From Sulfurospirillum sp. (GTDB lineage Bacteria > Campylobacterota > Campylobacteria > Campylobacterales > Sulfurospirillaceae): a DNA stretch of 27,474 nucleotides. Below are positions 1 through 20,484 of this stretch, piece by piece (positions within the stretch are counted from its first letter, which is position 1; the number at the start of each line of letters is the position of its first letter). The notes below the pieces were generated by a model. That model searched no databases, was not told the DNA's origin, and saw only the letters and a program-made list of their open reading frames with translations. The translations under genes and the position numbers were made by a program. The stretch is taken from contig JASFYR010000028.1 of the NCBI GenBank assembly GCA_045047115.1, positions 1-27,474 of the forward strand. The letters run 5' to 3'.

Positions 1-113
1 ATTCCGCAAAAATTCCTCGCGACTAAAGCTACGCCTTTGGCGAGAAAATTACTATTTATTGTCCCCTTTTTACGGAAGTGAATTCCGCAAAAATTCCTCA
101 CCCTTATGCTACG
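1..113 (-). repeat. Two tandem copies (81-bp period) of a palindromic modular repeat; the upstream copy has a degenerate 5' half and the downstream copy is cut by the window edge
   Basis: ATTCCGCAAAAATTCCTC is identical at 1-18 and 82-99; positions 10-50 are the reverse complement of 384-424. Confidence 0.85.
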
Positions 114-137
114 AGCTGTTGCTCTGTATAGTTTCAT
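1..137 (-). CDS. 5' end of a putative ORF running off the window, largely built from the modular repeat (MKLYRATARSIRVRNFCGIHFRKKGTINSNFLAKGVALVARNFCG...)
   Basis: ATG at 137-135, AAGGA at 149-145 (7-nt spacing), TATGAT at 173-168, no in-frame stop to position 1. Not in the ORF track. Could be a leader peptide or non-coding. Confidence 0.4.
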   Translation of the reverse strand, partial: MKLYRATARSIRVRNFCGIHFRKKGTINSNFLAKGVALVARNFCG

Positions 138-327
138 ACTGTAATCCTTCTTAAGTTCATTACTGTTATCATATATGTAAAACTACTATGATTTTTTTAT
201 TCTAAATTTTCACAATAGATAAGAGGCAATTCTATCCAAATTTCCCTAAATTTAGTATAAATGGTTATTAAATATTTTTTAAATAACTATATTTGCTAAG
301 GTTATATAAATGGTTTTACTAAATATA

Positions 328-348
328 CTTGACATCAATAGACTAAAG
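328..348 (+). promoter_or_regulatory. HAIR-like operator (HspR-associated inverted repeat) overlapping the clpB -35
   Basis: CTTGACA-N7-ACTAAAG versus consensus CTTGAGT-N7-ACTCAAG (11/14); clpB is an HspR target in Campylobacter. Confidence 0.7.
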
Positions 349-357
349 TTATATAAT
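329..357 (+). promoter_or_regulatory. sigma70-type promoter of clpB
   Basis: Perfect TTGACA (329-334), 17-nt spacer, TATAAT (352-357). Confidence 0.85.
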
Positions 358-383
358 TACACTAAAAAAGCAAAGTAAATCGC

Positions 384-455
384 AAATTTCTCGCCAAGGG
401 TGTAGCTTTAGTCGCGAGGAATTTAACTTAGGCTTTGTCTAAAACAAAGGGGACA
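384..455 (+). repeat. Full copy of the modular palindromic repeat in the clpB 5' leader, ending in the clpB ribosome-binding site
   Basis: 384-424 matches the reverse complement of 10-50 at 38/41; hairpin TTAGGC-ttt-GTCTAA at 428-442; AAAGGGGACA at 446-455, also on the minus strand at 69-60. Confidence 0.85.
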
Positions 456-459
456 CAAG

Positions 460-3030
<2,571 letters not shown>

Positions 3031-3035
3031 TTTAT

Positions 3036-3099
3036 AAGAGGGGTCAGGGTTAAACTTTAAACTTTTAAAAAAGTTTAAAGTTTAACCCTGACCCCTCTT
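3036..3099. repeat. 64-bp palindrome (31-bp perfect arms), REP/MITE-like, probably acting as a bidirectional terminator between convergent genes
   Basis: AAGAGGGGTCAGGGTTAAACTTTAAACTTTT (3036-3066), AA, then its exact reverse complement (3069-3099). Confidence 0.85.
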
Positions 3100-4041: not shown

Positions 4042-4096
4042 AACTGACCTTACGCACTATCTCACTGGAGATGTGATATAGTGCGTAAGGTCAGTT
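4042..4096. repeat. 55-bp hairpin (19-bp perfect arms) in the rpmH leader
   Basis: AACTGACCTTACGCACTAT (4042-4060) / ATAGTGCGTAAGGTCAGTT (4078-4096); inner TCAC/GTGA extends the stem. Confidence 0.85.
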
Positions 4097-4120
4097 AAAT
4101 AAATTTTAAAAGGGAAAATG

Positions 4121-14489: not shown

Positions 14490-15598
14490 AATGATTCTTC
14501 ATAAATTTCAAAGTGTTTTTGTATAACTTTTTGAATATCGAACTCTTTTTCTGCAAGTTTTCTTCCTGCTTTTCCCATGCTTTTTCTTAGCTCTTCATTC
14601 AAAACAAGCTTCTCAATTTGCCCGGCTAATGATTTACTGTCTTTTACTTTACACAAAAGTCCTGTAATATTTGCCTCTATTGCATCCCTGCACCCTGGAA
14701 CATCTGTTGTTACAACTGCTCGTCCGCAAGCAGCAGCTTCTATAAGAACTTTTGGTAACCCTTCTCTATATGATGGAAGGACTACAATATTGGCTTTTTC
14801 AAATATGCTTGCTATATCACTACTAAAATCATGCACTTCTACATAGGTATCTCGTTTAATTTGTTCTAAATCGGCATTTATCAAAGATGCAGGGTTTGCG
14901 CTATCAATATCACCGTATAGTTCAAATGTAACATCAATGCCTTTGTCTTTTATGATTTTCGCAGCTTCTATGTATTCAAATACACCTTTATCTTTCAAAA
15001 ATCTACATGCCATAACAACTCTAATGTCTTCATTGTTTTCTTGTGTATATTTATATTGATTTAAATCAACACCTGAGCCCCTAATAAGAGTAATAGGAAC
15101 TTTCCTAATAGACAACACCACATCTCTATCATCTGGGTTTTGTACAATTACATGAGAGTTTTTACCTCCTAATGCCAAACGATACAACCCTTTTATAAAT
15201 TTTCTAACTATGGAAGCCTTAACTCCCTGCTTTATAAATATAAAACCAAGACCAGATATAGAAAAAACAGTATTGTTTATTTTTAAAATTCTTGATGCTA
15301 TACCACCATAAAGCACAGGTTTTATAGTGATAAAATGTGTTACATCAGGTTTCATAATTTTTAGTACATTATAAATCTCAATAAATGCTCTTATCTCTTT
15401 TTGCACTCCTGTACTGCCCCTGGAGATATTTAAAGGGTATACATTAATGCCAAAGCTTTCTAGGCGGTTTTTTTTATCTGTTGTTCCACAAGCTACAGAT
15501 ACATCATAACCTTTTCTTAAAGCTTCTATGGCTAAAGGCAATCTATGTGAAATGAAAAACCAATCAATATTAACAACAAATAAGATTTTTTTAGTCAA
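14486..15598 (-). CDS. GT4 glycosyltransferase (CapM/WbpU/PglA-like)
   Basis: FFISHRLPL, KPVLYG, GSGVDL, PSYREGLPKVLIEAAA. Start placed at TTG 15598 (AAGGA 8 nt upstream) rather than the ORF-track 15661. Confidence 0.88.
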   Translation of the reverse strand: MTKKILFVVNIDWFFISHRLPLAIEALRKGYDVSVACGTTDKKNRLESFGINVYPLNISRGSTGVQKEIRAFIEIYNVLKIMKPDVTHFITIKPVLYGGIASRILKINNTVFSISGLGFIFIKQGVKASIVRKFIKGLYRLALGGKNSHVIVQNPDDRDVVLSIRKVPITLIRGSGVDLNQYKYTQENNEDIRVVMACRFLKDKGVFEYIEAAKIIKDKGIDVTFELYGDIDSANPASLINADLEQIKRDTYVEVHDFSSDIASIFEKANIVVLPSYREGLPKVLIEAAACGRAVVTTDVPGCRDAIEANITGLLCKVKDSKSLAGQIEKLVLNEELRKSMGKAGRKLAEKEFDIQKVIQKHFEIYEESL

Positions 15599-17489
15599 GC
15601 CATTTTTCCTTCCACATCTGATACATAAGGATAAACCAAATTGATGAACCGGTATTTTCACCTTTAAAGAATCTAGTTTTCATATCATTAACTTCTTTTT
15701 TATTAAAAATAGTATCATCTAATCTAATCTCATCTAGATATTGAATTACTAAAGGTTTTAATTCATTTCTAAGCCACTCATTAAGGGGTATCTGAAATCC
15801 AGATTTTGGTTTGTCAACCAACTCTTTTGGAAGATATTTATACAGCACCTGTCTAAGTAAATATTTTCCTTTTTTGTTCTTGTATTTGATCTCAAGGGGA
15901 ACTTTTGCCATATATTCTATGATCCTATGATCCAGTAATGGCTCTCTGCCTTCTAAACTCACACTCATTGTAGCTCTGTCAACTTTGGTTAGTACATCAT
16001 CATTCATAAAAAGCTTATAATCAACAGCCATCATTTGATTTAAAAACTCAATATCTTCTATTTTATCCCATTTGGCGAAAAGATTTTCTTCTTTTTTCAC
16101 TTTTAAAAATTTGGCTACTTTATTTTTATCTACATAGCTACTAGCGTTTTCAAACATTTCTTCTAAACCCTTACTATTTATAGATCTTTGAAATTTTTGA
16201 AATTTATCTTTGAAATTTGTTTGTTTTAATTTTTTTGGTAACCTGTCATTTATAAACGCCATACTATCCATATTAAGCAGATTTATTCCCGCTTTTAAAA
16301 CTTCCCCTTTTAAATTATTTGAAAATATATTTTGAAATTTATTTAAAAAAAAGTATTTACTATATCCACAAAAAGCTTCATCACCGCCATCAGCACTAAG
16401 AGCAACTTTTACATGTTGCTTTGCCAGTTTTGACACTATCATAGTAGGTAGTGCTGAGCTATCGCCAAAAGGTTCATCATAATAAAATGGTAAATTCTCA
16501 ACTAAATTTAGCATATCTTTATTTTTCATATAATACTCAGTATGATTTGTTCCTAAATATCTAGCTATTGTTTTAGCATGCTTGGCTTCATTGTATTTTG
16601 AATCATTAAAACCTATAGTAAAGGTATTGATTTTTTTTCCTTGTTTTTTTGCAAGAATTGAAGCTACTAAAGAGCTATCATAACCACCACTTAAAAATAC
16701 TCCTACGGGTACATCTGAAACCATTCGTAAATCTATAGCATCCCCAAGTATCTTTTCTATATCTCTTAAAATCTCATCTTCACTTTTAGAAAACTTTTCT
16801 TGAAGGTAATAGTCATTCACATCCCAATACTTTGTGATTCTAAATTCTAAATTATCAATTTTCAATTCCAAATAGTGTCCGGCCTCTAGTTTGAAACAGT
16901 TTTTAAATATGGTGTATGGAGCAGGTATATATCCAAATTGAAAAAAATAAGGTAACACTTCTAAATTTTGTTCTTTTTTAAAACCAGGATGCTTGTGAAA
17001 TGATTTGATTTCTGATGAAAACATAAATTGATTTTCACCAGTATAATAATATAGTGGCTTTACTCCTGCTCTATCTCTGGCTAAATAAAGTTTGTTTTGT
17101 ACTTTATCCAGTATAGAAAATGCAAACATACCTATAAACTTATCAAGACATTGTATGCCCCACTCTTTGTAACTGTAAAGTATAACTTCTGTATCGCTAT
17201 TTGAGATAAATTTATAACCTATCTCTTCAAGCTCTTTGCGAATAGTTTTAAAATTATAAACTTCTCCGTTAAAGACAATAACATAATCACTATAATCACT
17301 TACAAAAGGTTGATGACCATGAGAACTTAGATCTTGAATTGCCAATCTATTATGCCCAAAATGTACTCCATTGTCTTCATTAAAATATACTCCACGGTCA
17401 TCTGGACCACGGTAGAATTGAGTCAAAAGCATTTTTTGCAGTACATCAAGATTCTTATTTTTATCGATAAATCCCACTATCCCACACAT
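15591..17489 (-). CDS. asnB: Asparagine synthase (glutamine-hydrolysing)-like amidotransferase, polysaccharide-associated, copy 1
   Basis: N-terminal nucleophile MCGI, RGPD, NGEVYN, SDTEV, RDRAGVKPLYY, LSGGYDSS, KVDRATM. Confidence 0.9.
   Translation of the reverse strand: MCGIVGFIDKNKNLDVLQKMLLTQFYRGPDDRGVYFNEDNGVHFGHNRLAIQDLSSHGHQPFVSDYSDYVIVFNGEVYNFKTIRKELEEIGYKFISNSDTEVILYSYKEWGIQCLDKFIGMFAFSILDKVQNKLYLARDRAGVKPLYYYTGENQFMFSSEIKSFHKHPGFKKEQNLEVLPYFFQFGYIPAPYTIFKNCFKLEAGHYLELKIDNLEFRITKYWDVNDYYLQEKFSKSEDEILRDIEKILGDAIDLRMVSDVPVGVFLSGGYDSSLVASILAKKQGKKINTFTIGFNDSKYNEAKHAKTIARYLGTNHTEYYMKNKDMLNLVENLPFYYDEPFGDSSALPTMIVSKLAKQHVKVALSADGGDEAFCGYSKYFFLNKFQNIFSNNLKGEVLKAGINLLNMDSMAFINDRLPKKLKQTNFKDKFQKFQRSINSKGLEEMFENASSYVDKNKVAKFLKVKKEENLFAKWDKIEDIEFLNQMMAVDYKLFMNDDVLTKVDRATMSVSLEGREPLLDHRIIEYMAKVPLEIKYKNKKGKYLLRQVLYKYLPKELVDKPKSGFQIPLNEWLRNELKPLVIQYLDEIRLDDTIFNKKEVNDMKTRFFKGENTGSSIWFILMYQMWKEKWLD
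16837..16871. repeat. Five degenerate 7-bp tandem units inside asnB copy 1
   Basis: + strand ATTCTAA ATTCTAA ATTATCA ATTTTCA ATTCCAA. Confidence 0.6.
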
Positions 17490-18616
17490 ATTATCTCTTC
17501 GTACTGTTTTATAATTTGTTCTATTCTAAAATCATCTGTTCTCTGTTTTGCTGTTTCTTTATAATTTTTTCTCAATTCATTATCGTTCATAATTAGTTCC
17601 ATGGCTTCTTTTAATTTTTGGACATTGTTAATTGGAGTCAAAATACCATACTTAGCCAACTCTAAATCATTTTGCAACTGAACCTCTATATCACTATTTG
17701 GAGCTAAAATCTCTCTTGGCCCACTTTGACAATCCGTACTAATAACAGGAAGTCCACAGGCAAGAGCCTCTAAAAGAACATTTGGAAAACCTTCATAGTT
17801 TGAGCTAAATACAAAACAATCAGCTTTTGCCAAATATTTATATGGGTTTTTTTGTCGTCCCAATAAAAATACTTTATTTTCCAAATTAAGAGTTTTTATT
17901 TGATTTTCAAGTTTACCTCTTAACTCACCTTCGCCTATGATATAGAGTTGTGCATTAACATCTTGCATAGCATCTATAATAAGTTGATGATTCTTACCAT
18001 CATCGAGTCTGCCAACAGTTACAAAAACAAAACCATTGTACTTTGACTCAATATCGTCTTTTGCTTGTTCTGCAATTTTTTTAATATCAAAAAGATTATA
18101 TATAGTTATAACTTTTTTGATATTAAAATTAGCTGTCAAATCTACACTGTTTCCCTTTGAATTAGCCGTGATTAAGTCGGATTTATTATACAAGTATTTT
18201 ATTAAAAACCTATTGATTAATCCTTGCAATCCGCTTTTGTGCTGGAGTGATGGCATAGCTCTTTCACTTATAATGCTTTTAGAGTTGTTTGCAAAAAATT
18301 TAGAGATAATGTTTATATAGTTTGGTCTGTTCATAAATGATAAACTTATATCTATATCATTATTTTCACATATCTGCTTATATCTATATCCTAAAAACGG
18401 CAACTTTAGTAACTTTTTGATTCCACTTTCATTTGGATTTGAGTTTTCGAGATATATGATTTGTAGATTTTTTGGTATATCATAGAAGATTGCATCATTC
18501 ATTAAAACCAAAGTTATATTATATTTATCTTTTAATTCATTTAACAGTACTGATACAACTCTTTCAGCACCACCACTTGCTAGAGAATATATTAAAATAG
18601 ATAGATTTTTTTTCAT
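17477..18616 (-). CDS. GT4 glycosyltransferase (PglJ/WabH-like)
   Basis: SLASGGAERV, VGRLDDGKN, NPYKYL, SNYEGFPNVLLEALAC. Confidence 0.88.
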   Translation of the reverse strand: MKKNLSILIYSLASGGAERVVSVLLNELKDKYNITLVLMNDAIFYDIPKNLQIIYLENSNPNESGIKKLLKLPFLGYRYKQICENNDIDISLSFMNRPNYINIISKFFANNSKSIISERAMPSLQHKSGLQGLINRFLIKYLYNKSDLITANSKGNSVDLTANFNIKKVITIYNLFDIKKIAEQAKDDIESKYNGFVFVTVGRLDDGKNHQLIIDAMQDVNAQLYIIGEGELRGKLENQIKTLNLENKVFLLGRQKNPYKYLAKADCFVFSSNYEGFPNVLLEALACGLPVISTDCQSGPREILAPNSDIEVQLQNDLELAKYGILTPINNVQKLKEAMELIMNDNELRKNYKETAKQRTDDFRIEQIIKQYEEIICVG

Positions 18617-20484
18617 TGTTTATTCACATATTTGTCATGCCACATTTGAAAAACCAAAATAAACCAGAGTTTGTTTATATTTAAAATTTTATCATTTTTA
18701 AGTTTTTGATACTCTTGTTGAATATAATTATTATTTAAAAGGTTATGCTTGTCTAATTTTTCATCTGTAAAATTTTTCTCAAAAAGTTCTCTCAAATCTC
18801 CACCAAACCATTCAAACATAGGTATCCCAAATCCCATCTTCGGTCTATCAATCATACTTTTTGGTATATATCTCTCAAGCACTTTTCTAAGTAGATATTT
18901 GCTGGTGCCATCTTTATATTTAAGCTCAAACGGCACTTGTGCCATAAACTCTGCAATTTTATGATCAAGTAATGGTTCTCGACCTTCTATACTTACACTC
19001 ATAGTAGCCCTGTCTACTTTTGTAAGAATATCATCTGCCAAATATCTATGATAATCCCACAGCATCATGCCTTGCATTGGATTTTCATTTTCTCCAATTT
19101 TAAAGCTTTTTTCATCTATATCTTTAATGACGCCTAAAAGCTCTTTAATCTCATAATTCTTTGAGTTGTGAATTAATTTTTCATAAATACTTTGCCAATT
19201 GTCATCTTTTAGCATTTCATTTAATTGATTGTATTTATGTTCAAAGTTTTTGATTTTAAAAAGTTTAGAGGCATTTTGAACACCTACTATATCCATTATC
19301 TTGGCTAATGATTTTCTTGCAAACTTTGGAAGTTTTAGTATTTTGTTGCCAATGGCATAGCTATACCAATACCTCTCGTATCCACAAAATATTTCATCTC
19401 CGCCATCAGCACTTAAAACTACTTTTATGCCATTTTCTTTTGCAACTTGAGATACTAAGGTTGTAGGTATGCCACTACTGTCACCAAAAGGTTCATCGTA
19501 GATATCTACAAAATTATCAAGCATTTTTTTTGCTTCGCTTGAGTTTAAAAACTTCTCTGTATGTATGGTGCCTATATATTTTGCTACCTCTTTTGCATAA
19601 GTTGCTTCGTTGTATTTTGCCTCTTTAAATCCTATGGTAAATGTATGGATATTTCCATAATGTTTTTGTAAAATCGCTGCAACTACACTACTGTCTATTC
19701 CACCACTTAAAAACACCCCAACTGGCACATCTGAAACCATTCTGTATCTAAAAGCATCAATCAAAAGAGCTTCTAACTCGTCTATCAGTTCATTTTCACT
19801 TTTTTGAAATTTTGGTAATCCAAAAAATGGTAGTATTGACCAATACTCTTTAATTTTTAATGTTAAATTTTTAATGTTAAATGTTGCGTAATGCCCAGCT
19901 GGGAGTTTGAAGCAGTTTTCAAAAATAGAAAGATTTGAAGAGATATAGCCAAACTGAAAAAACTCATAAAGTGCATCTTTGTTTATGGCTAAATCTTTTT
20001 TATATTCTATTACTGGTTTTAATTCACTTGCAAAGACAAAATCTTTTCCATCAAAATAGTAATAAAGTGGCTTAACTCCAACTCTATCACGAATAAGTGT
20101 AACAGTTTTTAAATCTTTATCATAAATAGCTATAGCAAACATACCTATAAACTTATCAACTGCCTTTATACCCCATTTATGGTAAGCTTTTAATATAACT
20201 TCACTATCGCTCTCACTCTCAAAACTATATCCAAATTTCTCAAGCTCCTTTTTTATCTCTTTAAAATTATAAACCTCACCATTATACACCATTACAAGAT
20301 TTTCAAATACCATAGGTTGATGACCACTTTGACTTAAATCCAAAATAGAAAGCCTAACATGCCCTAAAGAAAAATTCTCATCTTCATATACACCACTATC
20401 ATCCGGACCACGATGATATATACTTGTAAGCATACTGTTTAATTTTTGAGTATCTTTATTATTAAATCCTATTATTCCACACAT
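18613..20484 (-). CDS. asnB: Asparagine synthase-like amidotransferase, polysaccharide-associated, copy 2
   Basis: MCGI, HRGPD, NGEVYN, RDRVGVKPLYY, LSGGIDSS, KVDRATM; collinear with copy 1. Confidence 0.9.
   Translation of the reverse strand: MCGIIGFNNKDTQKLNSMLTSIYHRGPDDSGVYEDENFSLGHVRLSILDLSQSGHQPMVFENLVMVYNGEVYNFKEIKKELEKFGYSFESESDSEVILKAYHKWGIKAVDKFIGMFAIAIYDKDLKTVTLIRDRVGVKPLYYYFDGKDFVFASELKPVIEYKKDLAINKDALYEFFQFGYISSNLSIFENCFKLPAGHYATFNIKNLTLKIKEYWSILPFFGLPKFQKSENELIDELEALLIDAFRYRMVSDVPVGVFLSGGIDSSVVAAILQKHYGNIHTFTIGFKEAKYNEATYAKEVAKYIGTIHTEKFLNSSEAKKMLDNFVDIYDEPFGDSSGIPTTLVSQVAKENGIKVVLSADGGDEIFCGYERYWYSYAIGNKILKLPKFARKSLAKIMDIVGVQNASKLFKIKNFEHKYNQLNEMLKDDNWQSIYEKLIHNSKNYEIKELLGVIKDIDEKSFKIGENENPMQGMMLWDYHRYLADDILTKVDRATMSVSIEGREPLLDHKIAEFMAQVPFELKYKDGTSKYLLRKVLERYIPKSMIDRPKMGFGIPMFEWFGGDLRELFEKNFTDEKLDKHNLLNNNYIQQEYQKLKNDKILNINKLWFILVFQMWHDKYVNKQ
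19849..19883. repeat. Five degenerate 7-bp tandem units inside asnB copy 2
   Basis: + strand TTTAATT TTTAATG TTAAATT TTTAATG TTAAATG. Confidence 0.6.

Follow-up and report, generated by a model that had tools for sequence, protein, structure and literature searches.

We found that the leader of clpB in this Sulfurospirillum contig carries one copy of a dispersed, structured repeat, and we consider it rather likely that this repeat is a non-autonomous element of the Campylobacterales that comes and goes at the starts of translated genes. A unit of about 80 bases consists of a hairpin (A), a conserved core, a second hairpin (B), a Shine-Dalgarno (SD)-like tail and an ATG, and units occur singly and in tandem arrays. 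The window, meaning the whole 27,474-nucleotide stretch analyzed, is contig C28 of a genome of 2.14 Mb, 35% GC and 41 contigs (G000). An iterated profile search of this genome found 85 copies at 69 sites, and at 57 of the 69 a sense open reading frame (ORF) starts no more than 45 nt away. The element family is apparently undescribed, its proposed new traits being start-codon targeting and self-repair; no description of it turned up in the open-access text searched, and a prior description is possible.

Structure of the repeat and its copies at the clpB locus

The clpB ORF (460-3030, + strand, 856 aa) has TIGR03346 as its top match at 1169 bits, slightly below the curated cut-off of 1232. A complete, SD-bearing copy of the element occupies 383-460 (+) in its leader, with a covariance-model score of 58.3 bits; all of its parts are on the + strand. 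Hairpin A of this copy (390-405) has a 2-bp base, one bulge, a 4-bp stem and a 3-nt purine loop; the stem covaries, and the base and bulge come from the parsed copies. The conserved core that separates the two hairpins (405-421) corresponds to invariant or near-invariant columns of our alignment A1. Hairpin B, placed at 422-448 by covariation and local folding, has a family stem of 11 bp, of which three lower pairs are mismatched here. The element's own SD site, a spacer and the clpB ATG follow in the sequence at 448-462, and the first-pass annotation was right to read GGGGA, 5′ of the ATG at 460, as the clpB SD. A promoter scan predicts a sigma-70 promoter with 12/12 consensus matches at 329-357 (+), and relatives with and without the element have this promoter too. 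Since the copy lies downstream of the predicted promoter, it would be part of the 5′ leader. A HAIR-like inverted repeat with 11/14 HAIR consensus matches, a probable HspR operator, covers the −35 box at 328-348 and is outside the element. We found no promoter inside the element, all promoter-like sites of window positions 1-600 being outside the copies. No terminator was found in the same 600 positions, where hairpin B is followed by A, not U.

Two further units lie on the − strand in the leader of the divergent gene. The first unit of this tandem array spans 55-132 (66.8 bits) and has the other hairpin-A subtype and a degenerate core. The second, also a model match, spans 1-51, where the contig end cuts through it, and continues on contig C32 to the start of an S41 peptidase gene. 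The element described by the first-pass annotation is real, but the window holds three copies of it (383-460, +; 55-132, −; 1-51, −) rather than the two claimed. Its minus-strand module had the right coordinates and combined two copies: the spacer at 90-70 is part of the unit at 55-132, which has a different 5′ hairpin and a degenerate core, and does not go with the core at 50-10. The 41-bp cores at 384-424 (+) and 50-10 (−) do match at 38/41 positions (92.7%), and the 21-nt spacers at 425-445 and 90-70 are both there and each folds. Positions 1-73 of the window are identical to the last 73 bases of C32, whose end gene, outside the window, is the S41 C-terminal peptidase (TIGR00225, above cut-off). 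The C28-C32 join is supported by relatives, in which a single contig carries both purS and clpB, 2-3 kb apart. Upstream of the left array (135-152, −), an SD-like site at 152-145 precedes an ATG at 137-135 that, judging by the sequence, would be the original start of the divergent gene. The frame from this ATG stays open through both units to the contig end and, assuming the simplest two-unit join, would end at an ATGA overlap on C32. A candidate −10 box for the divergent transcript at 229-234 (−) was read by eye and was not reported by the promoter scan; the stretch around it looks conserved in relatives.

The window holds other repeats as well. A perfect palindrome with 31-bp arms (3036-3099), in the gap between clpB and a convergent gene, is a head-to-head doublet of the inverted repeat that flanks a Y1 gene on contig C7 (L121:1413-1441 and 2221-2249), and a 12-mer from it occurs 13 times in the genome. 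An inverted repeat with 24-bp arms (4042-4096) lies in the leader of a short ribosomal-protein-like ORF that starts near 4120 and that we take to be rpmH. Two related ORFs of 632 and 623 aa (15591-17489 and 18613-20484), about 3 kb apart, have several direct repeats in common, in a setting that looks like a polysaccharide gene cluster.

A fuzzy search for the core found 61 matches in the genome, compared with 1 and 2 in two mononucleotide shuffles, far more than chance would give. For hairpin B we used 50 of 57 parsed G000 copies, having dropped 3 that parsed poorly, 3 without a locus and 1 cut by a contig end; 97.6% of 549 cells are paired and 9 of the 11 pairs are compensatory, against 72.0% paired in shuffles and at most 68.3% in slid controls. 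For the 4-bp core of hairpin A, two sets of 22 and 20 copies from G000 and relatives, chosen by loop length (3 nt and 4 nt), gave 100% of 88 and 98.8% of 80 cells paired, with 4/4 pairs compensatory. The first-pass annotation had made a 41-bp hairpin a feature of the module and had taken the spacer sequence to be free, and neither idea was borne out. The long hairpin is the predicted fold of one subtype only, and 20 copies showed 74.1% paired cells against 74.0% after shuffling and 0/11 compensatory pairs, in a test whose power is limited by a nearly invariant 3′ partner. The spacers turned out to vary a single 11-bp stem, whose loop comes in two classes.

On the sense strand, the ratio of G-U to A-C in hairpin B is 32:7 for G000, 22:12 for relatives and 56:11 for the metagenome copies; in hairpin A it is 9:1 for G000 but 1:1 for relatives. 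The excess of G-T over A-C implies that the sense strand is the one that folds, as RNA or as single-stranded DNA. Loops are 3-5 nt long. Tetraloops of hairpin A are mostly GNYA, not GNRA, and by their thermodynamics GNYA tetraloops suit single-stranded DNA better than RNA. The twin hairpins of ANTAR target RNAs, which go with an ANTAR protein, have six-nucleotide loops; a search for ANTAR gave no match in G000, but it gave none in its control genomes either. All main combinations of hairpin-A class, loop class of hairpin B and core type occur. Two genomes (G004 and G008) have a longer hairpin B, and two others (G054 and G115) have a third hairpin added at the 5′ end. The units with this extra hairpin, in G054 (L539-L559) and G115 (L540-L556), are about 123 and 141 bp long and near-identical, which suggests recent bursts. 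The antisense end reads TGTC in most copies of alignment A1, and a search of this alignment for terminal inverted repeats found no complementary ends. The window had no gathering-level match in Rfam, relaxed E-values giving only weak, unrelated matches. At two places in G000 (C9:65172-65290 and C11:39401-39500), the loop of hairpin B encloses another small repeat, some 35 bp long.

Position of the copies at translation starts

At 40 of the 57 sites with a nearby ORF, the start is 2-4 nt from the model end and the tail of the element is the SD. At the other 17 it is 13-31 nt away, and these are mostly a subtype with an SD-less tail, placed before the native SD. Within the same 45 nt, the opposite strand gave a start at 11/69 sites and random intergenic points at 665/1584. 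Eight of the 69 sites are at contig edges, and on inspection the remaining four were a nested insertion before a start, a short ORF, a copy about 90 nt before a gene and a copy in RNase P RNA. This leaves 61 judged sites (57 direct, three before gene starts on inspection and one in RNase P RNA). None of the 61 is antisense or in a convergent gap, yet convergent gaps hold about 14% of the intergenic length (gaps of at least 60 bp). At 55 of 60 sites the gene upstream runs in the same direction, compared with 1593 of 2059 genes overall (77%). Sense orientation, start-codon position and covariation in two stems thus all uphold the proposal of a portable ribosome-binding site, and they support that of a REP-like element at leaders. 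Roles as a domesticated element or a stabilizer, which were also proposed, may or may not apply. Copies are neither randomly oriented nor downstream of genes, and the transcription start, as predicted, does not lie past the element.

Targets are functionally unrelated and differ between species. NCBIfam names among them dapD, adenosine deaminase, mog, moeA, rpoC and a decarboxylase subunit, with several matches scoring under the curated cut-offs; from their N-termini we take further targets in G000 to be guaA, purS, purE, argF, hemN, nfo, dnaK, infA and ribosomal-protein genes. One element-led short ORF of about 49 codons (C9:68690-68840) falls under the 50-codon cut-off. By local GC skew, 52 of 63 sites are on the leading strand, against 1262 of 1843 genes, and with this mild excess only, we rejected targeting of the lagging strand. 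In a check for local hopping, 3 of 13 nearby copy pairs were above the 98th similarity percentile, with a mean of 0.656 versus 0.612. Arrays reach four units, and no head-to-head dimers of the element were seen. Such arrays break assemblies, with many copies at contig ends, and the element can yield false short ORFs or N-terminal extensions (L430, L447).

Orthologous sites can be filled or empty. G000, G001, G003, G004, G006 and G010 carry the element in front of clpB, and G005, G007, G009, G011, G013, G014, G016 and G017 lack it there; two further loci had no anchor. The clpB leader of G012 (L014) has an unrelated palindrome of about 65 bp between promoter and SD, in the position of the element. 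The states of purS, guaA and hemN differ again, and the presence patterns at clpB/purS/guaA/hemN (for example, 1000 in G001, 0111 in G009 and 1101 in G010) conflict on a GuaA+HemN tree of the genus. These states were scored by eye, with remnants marked apart, among genomes more distant from each other than very close strains. Among those listed, filled orthologous sites often carry different variants. In clear pairs, the filled allele consists of the original SD, the ATG, a few gene bases, the element and then a new SD and ATG. Pairs that keep the old SD and ATG upstream are G003 L202 versus G000 C23, G009 L238 versus G000 C13, purS in G000 versus G001 and hemN in G000 versus G011. Direct repeats around the ATG are 15 bp long at a leuA-like site and 14 bp at hemN. 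The gene-specific excess of duplication is small, with a forward match of 5.03 versus 4.70 (107/5000 permutations) and a backward match of 1.72 versus 1.16 (71/5000 permutations), and the duplication is therefore mostly generic ATGA. We found no target duplication of fixed length at these sites; the duplication is ragged and centered on the ATG.

We examined the retained upstream start in a set of 130 non-redundant element-led starts, in which copies are related, so that the statistics overstate. An ATG is found just upstream in 57 of the 130, and 35 of the 130 have an SD as well, against a background of 20/343. Since the other 73 sites, the clpB copy included, are without an upstream ATG, coupling is not general. 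Of the 35 upstream frames, 22 end in ATGA on the gene start, 5 end within 12 nt of it and 1 fuses in frame; the remaining 7 terminate sooner, 6 of these in arrays, at roughly one or two units' distance upstream. The ATG-to-ATG distances peak at 80 (n = 18) and 83 (n = 26), with n = 7 at 81 and n = 2 at 82. The −1 frame accounts for 48 of 67 distances, or 38 of 53 after collapsing by N-terminus, while 5000 permutations of left and right part lengths averaged 38.7 and reached 48 at most. In the coupled frame, stops are as common in units that have an upstream ATG (15/67) as in units that lack one (26/93; p 0.47). In distant genomes, 0 of 8 measurable nearest-ATG distances are in the −1 frame. 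In G054 and G115, 9 of 10 traced copies have a frame through the element that stops 4-7 nt before the model end. The ATGA layout resembles a bicistronic design, and by this analogy the leader would be translated.

Distribution, RNase P RNA copies and the search for a mobilizer

The element also occurs within the gene for RNase P RNA, at 4 of 25 matches (G000, G015, G016 and, as a second copy, G003). The copy in G000 is a covariance-model match at C9:162660-162731 (L386:1631-1707), and the others are model matches in L379, L383 and L395. The insertion site is a variable helix, presumably P12, that is short in G007, G009, G010, G013 and G014. In five more genomes (G002, G004, G012, G017 and G027) the same helix is occupied by other hairpin inserts, so it is a site tolerant of repeats. 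Rickettsia palindromic elements, too, insert into RNase P RNA and tmRNA. The inserts of G000 and G016 have an ATG at both junctions. The RNase P RNA copies suggest that targeting is by a sequence in the transcribed strand and not by translation itself; alternatively, the element may have been inherited there from the ancestor of the family, with loss afterwards. G003 has two different RNase P RNA genes, L395 with and L373 without the element, possibly through bin contamination.

Within the family, our model R1 matches 33 of 37 genomes, which have 0-115 copies, with 19-115 in genus g1 and 0-3 in g3. An order-wide scan, in which 33 candidates were scored per genome, found the element in 39 of 141 genomes and 10 of the 25 families listed, in a patchy distribution. 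The same layout appears in G047, G101, G115 and others, and 28 of 32 distant copies inspected have an ORF start no more than 5 nt from the model end. The element was not found in the two largest families of the phylum sample (0/51 and 0/53 genomes). At metagenome loci, where the search pattern included the SD, an ORF start follows in 77 of the 80 listed out of at least 120, and of 28 metagenome targets, 11 have the element in front of them in G000 too. Phages and plasmids gave no match, apart from one viral 20-mer without hairpins that we took as chance. A copy at argF persists in genomes with only 1-3 copies, and single copies persist at one 74-76-aa gene in several genomes. The recurrent targets and the persistence at argF fit either retention for function or old insertions.

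No mobilizer was found: of 59 loci around Y1, reverse transcriptase (RT) or IS110 genes, one has a copy within about 1.5 kb, and that copy leads an ordinary gene. Y1 genes are present in 22/25 and 5/5 genomes regardless of copy number, and they are not flanked by the element. The single contig of G013, with its 19 copies, yielded one short match to an IS200-type Y1 gene and none to RT or IS110; across the genus, IS110 turned up in 2 of the 13 genomes tallied. The sole GIY-YIG match in G000 is a 609-aa frame, probably UvrC by our naming. Of 14 ORFs adjacent to metagenome copies and without a G000 match, 13 were scanned against Pfam and gave no nuclease or transposase. G000 has no RT, and 2 of 5 other high-copy genomes have one with no copy nearby; a SINE-like retroelement was rejected on these grounds. 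The one lead to a mobilizer is the tail decamer, which is part of the inverted repeats flanking a Y1 gene on contig C3, a TIRYT-type motif, and this match may be convergence on an SD-like word. The C3 locus itself has inverted arrays of short G-rich repeats (L120:1127-1220 and 1927-2008) flanking a 215-aa TIRYT-like Y1 gene.

Possible explanations and known systems

If the repeat is gained and lost at translation starts, a unit would enter just behind a start codon and thereby duplicate ATG(A). The old SD and ATG would stay upstream while the tail of the unit provided a new SD and ATG, and the gene would survive. Where the old start remains, selection would favor lengths that end the upstream frame on the gene's ATG (ATGA), and translating ribosomes would melt the hairpins and re-initiate at the gene. 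Recombination between duplicated starts would produce arrays and clean loss, and the SD-less subtype would land between an upstream stop and the native SD. As for copying, our guess is a single-strand copy-in route that uses short matches at the ATG. Any influence of the element on expression is probably a by-product, now and then domesticated locally. We propose more tentatively, as a possibility somewhat short of even, that this is a class of selfish mini-elements whose members home in on start codons and offset their own cost through the rebuilt SD and ATG and the ATGA-coupled leader cistron, with order-wide spread in the absence of a dedicated transposase and about 3% of genes' starts rewritten, including those of rpoC and ribosomal-protein genes.

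The repeat could instead be a domesticated cis-acting RNA module, whose hairpins and core set mRNA stability or processing in operons or bind a common protein such as CsrA and so tune housekeeping translation. We think this unlikely, though worth serious attention: the sense-strand G-U excess over A-C, the strict sense orientation with 55/60 sites operon-internal, the recurrence of targets and the single copies kept at argF and the 74-76-aa gene are what such a module would show, but the targets are unrelated and vary between species, orthologous sites have different variants or none, units are stacked up to four in arrays or placed inside RNase P RNA, and the GNYA tetraloops favor single-stranded DNA. 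A thermometer was among the options of the first-pass annotation; that the repeat is an RNA thermometer, or a heat-shock leader peculiar to clpB, appears highly improbable. Copies in G000 do precede clpB and dnaK (the latter named from its N-terminus), others precede genes that from their N-termini we take to be hslV- and hslU-like (G146) and hspR-like (G101), and the SD of the clpB leader is predicted to open further with heat, from 0.50 at 20°C to 0.90 at 65°C. However, hairpin B ends before the SD, which has a median predicted unpaired probability of 0.78 at 37°C over 38 copies, the dnaK copy is of the SD-less subtype, and most element-led genes are not heat-shock genes. RNA thermometers such as ROSE and fourU hold the SD in a melting stem and are confined to heat-shock or virulence leaders, whereas the SD of the element is predicted to be mostly open, the genes behind it are unrelated and Rfam has no match. 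The clpB of several relatives lacks the element despite the same promoter, which, together with the unrelated targets and the RNase P RNA copies, speaks against a clpB-specific or conserved leader function. The HAIR-like operator is at clpB in relatives with and without the element alike; scored with a consensus taken from part of PMC7464140, it was the top site in 11 of 14 clpB loci tested and was visible by eye in the other three. Given this operator and the analogy to the HspR system of C. jejuni, heat control of clpB would need no element.

It is also improbable, though less so than a thermometer, that we are looking at an ordinary REP/BIME family, CGTC/TGTC antisense-tagged or derived from TIRYT ends, with little insertion specificity and a start position due to purifying selection only. 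The portion of PMC3733652 used here describes CGTC/GTAG REPs and BIMEs as short hairpins having heterogeneous stems with G-T pairs, in tandem clusters that take in flanking DNA, counts TGTC among the variants of CGTC and includes CGTC repeats with no linked transposase; its families include some of Sulfurovum. The antisense TGTC end of most copies and the tandem clusters, typical of REP families, agree with this, as does the 3′ decamer common to the inverted repeats of the C3 Y1 gene; the REP/TIRYT motif GGGG[AT][CG]A[CG] resembles the tail of the element (PMC3733652 and PMC6006769, in the parts used). Described REPs are 20-40 bp, mostly downstream of genes and often head-to-head, whereas the element is 5′, sense-only and head-to-tail, with 0/61 judged sites in convergent gaps. 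The CGTC REPs of that description have an unpaired CGTC/TGTC tag, an 8-9-bp stem starting with AT and a CCA tail; most copies of the element have TGTC on the antisense strand, but with an 11-bp stem and no evident AT pair or CCA tail. Copies of REPs or REPINs with a RAYT flank the Y1 (TnpA-REP) gene, and copies of the element do not. The SD-less subtype is also sense and upstream, which selection for an intact SD leaves unexplained.

A start-targeting repeat resembles several known systems in part. Neisseria REP2 and Borrelia IR-A, in the sections of PMC3184786 considered, are dispersed intergenic repeats with two internal stem-loops, a ribosome-binding site plus an ATG; REP2 has 23-26 promoter-bearing copies of 120-150 bp, IR-A has a promoter too, and those sections leave spread and origin unexplained. 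The element likewise has two stem-loops, a ribosome-binding site plus an ATG directly upstream of genes and no terminal inverted repeats. Compared by description, it differs in its length of about 80 bp, in having no promoter found and in being mostly operon-internal. Unlike them, it covaries, swaps modules, forms tandem arrays and spans at least a dozen families, and it leaves the old start in place upstream and is found inside RNase P RNA. Synthetic bicistronic designs, as far as described in the part of bioRxiv 10.1101/2023.02.09.527918 used here, have an SD1 and a short leader cistron that contains an SD2 and whose stop overlaps the next start; the helicase activity of the ribosome removes structure, and re-initiation drives the gene. 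Those designs are engineered and unstructured, whereas the layout of the element would come from insertion, concerns about a quarter of sites (35/130) and is presumed to be translated. Rickettsia palindromic elements, according to the portion of PMC10969869 used, are also palindromic repeats tolerated in functional sequence; they fuse in frame inside proteins, while the element sits at starts and fuses in frame in 1/35. Bacterial MITEs (ERIC, Correia, RUP), in the same portion, are similarly small, non-autonomous, gene-adjacent repeats that fold as RNA, but they have terminal inverted repeats and a defined target duplication, neither of which was found for the element.

If our preferred reading of gain and loss at translation starts is true, the repeat would spread in a gene-dense genome by landing where damage is repairable, and it would show turnover of the ribosome-binding sites of core genes between species. 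The filled and empty orthologous sites bear on a question raised for REP2, namely how repeats that carry a start arise and multiply. The element would then also be the naturally occurring equivalent of engineered bicistronic designs.
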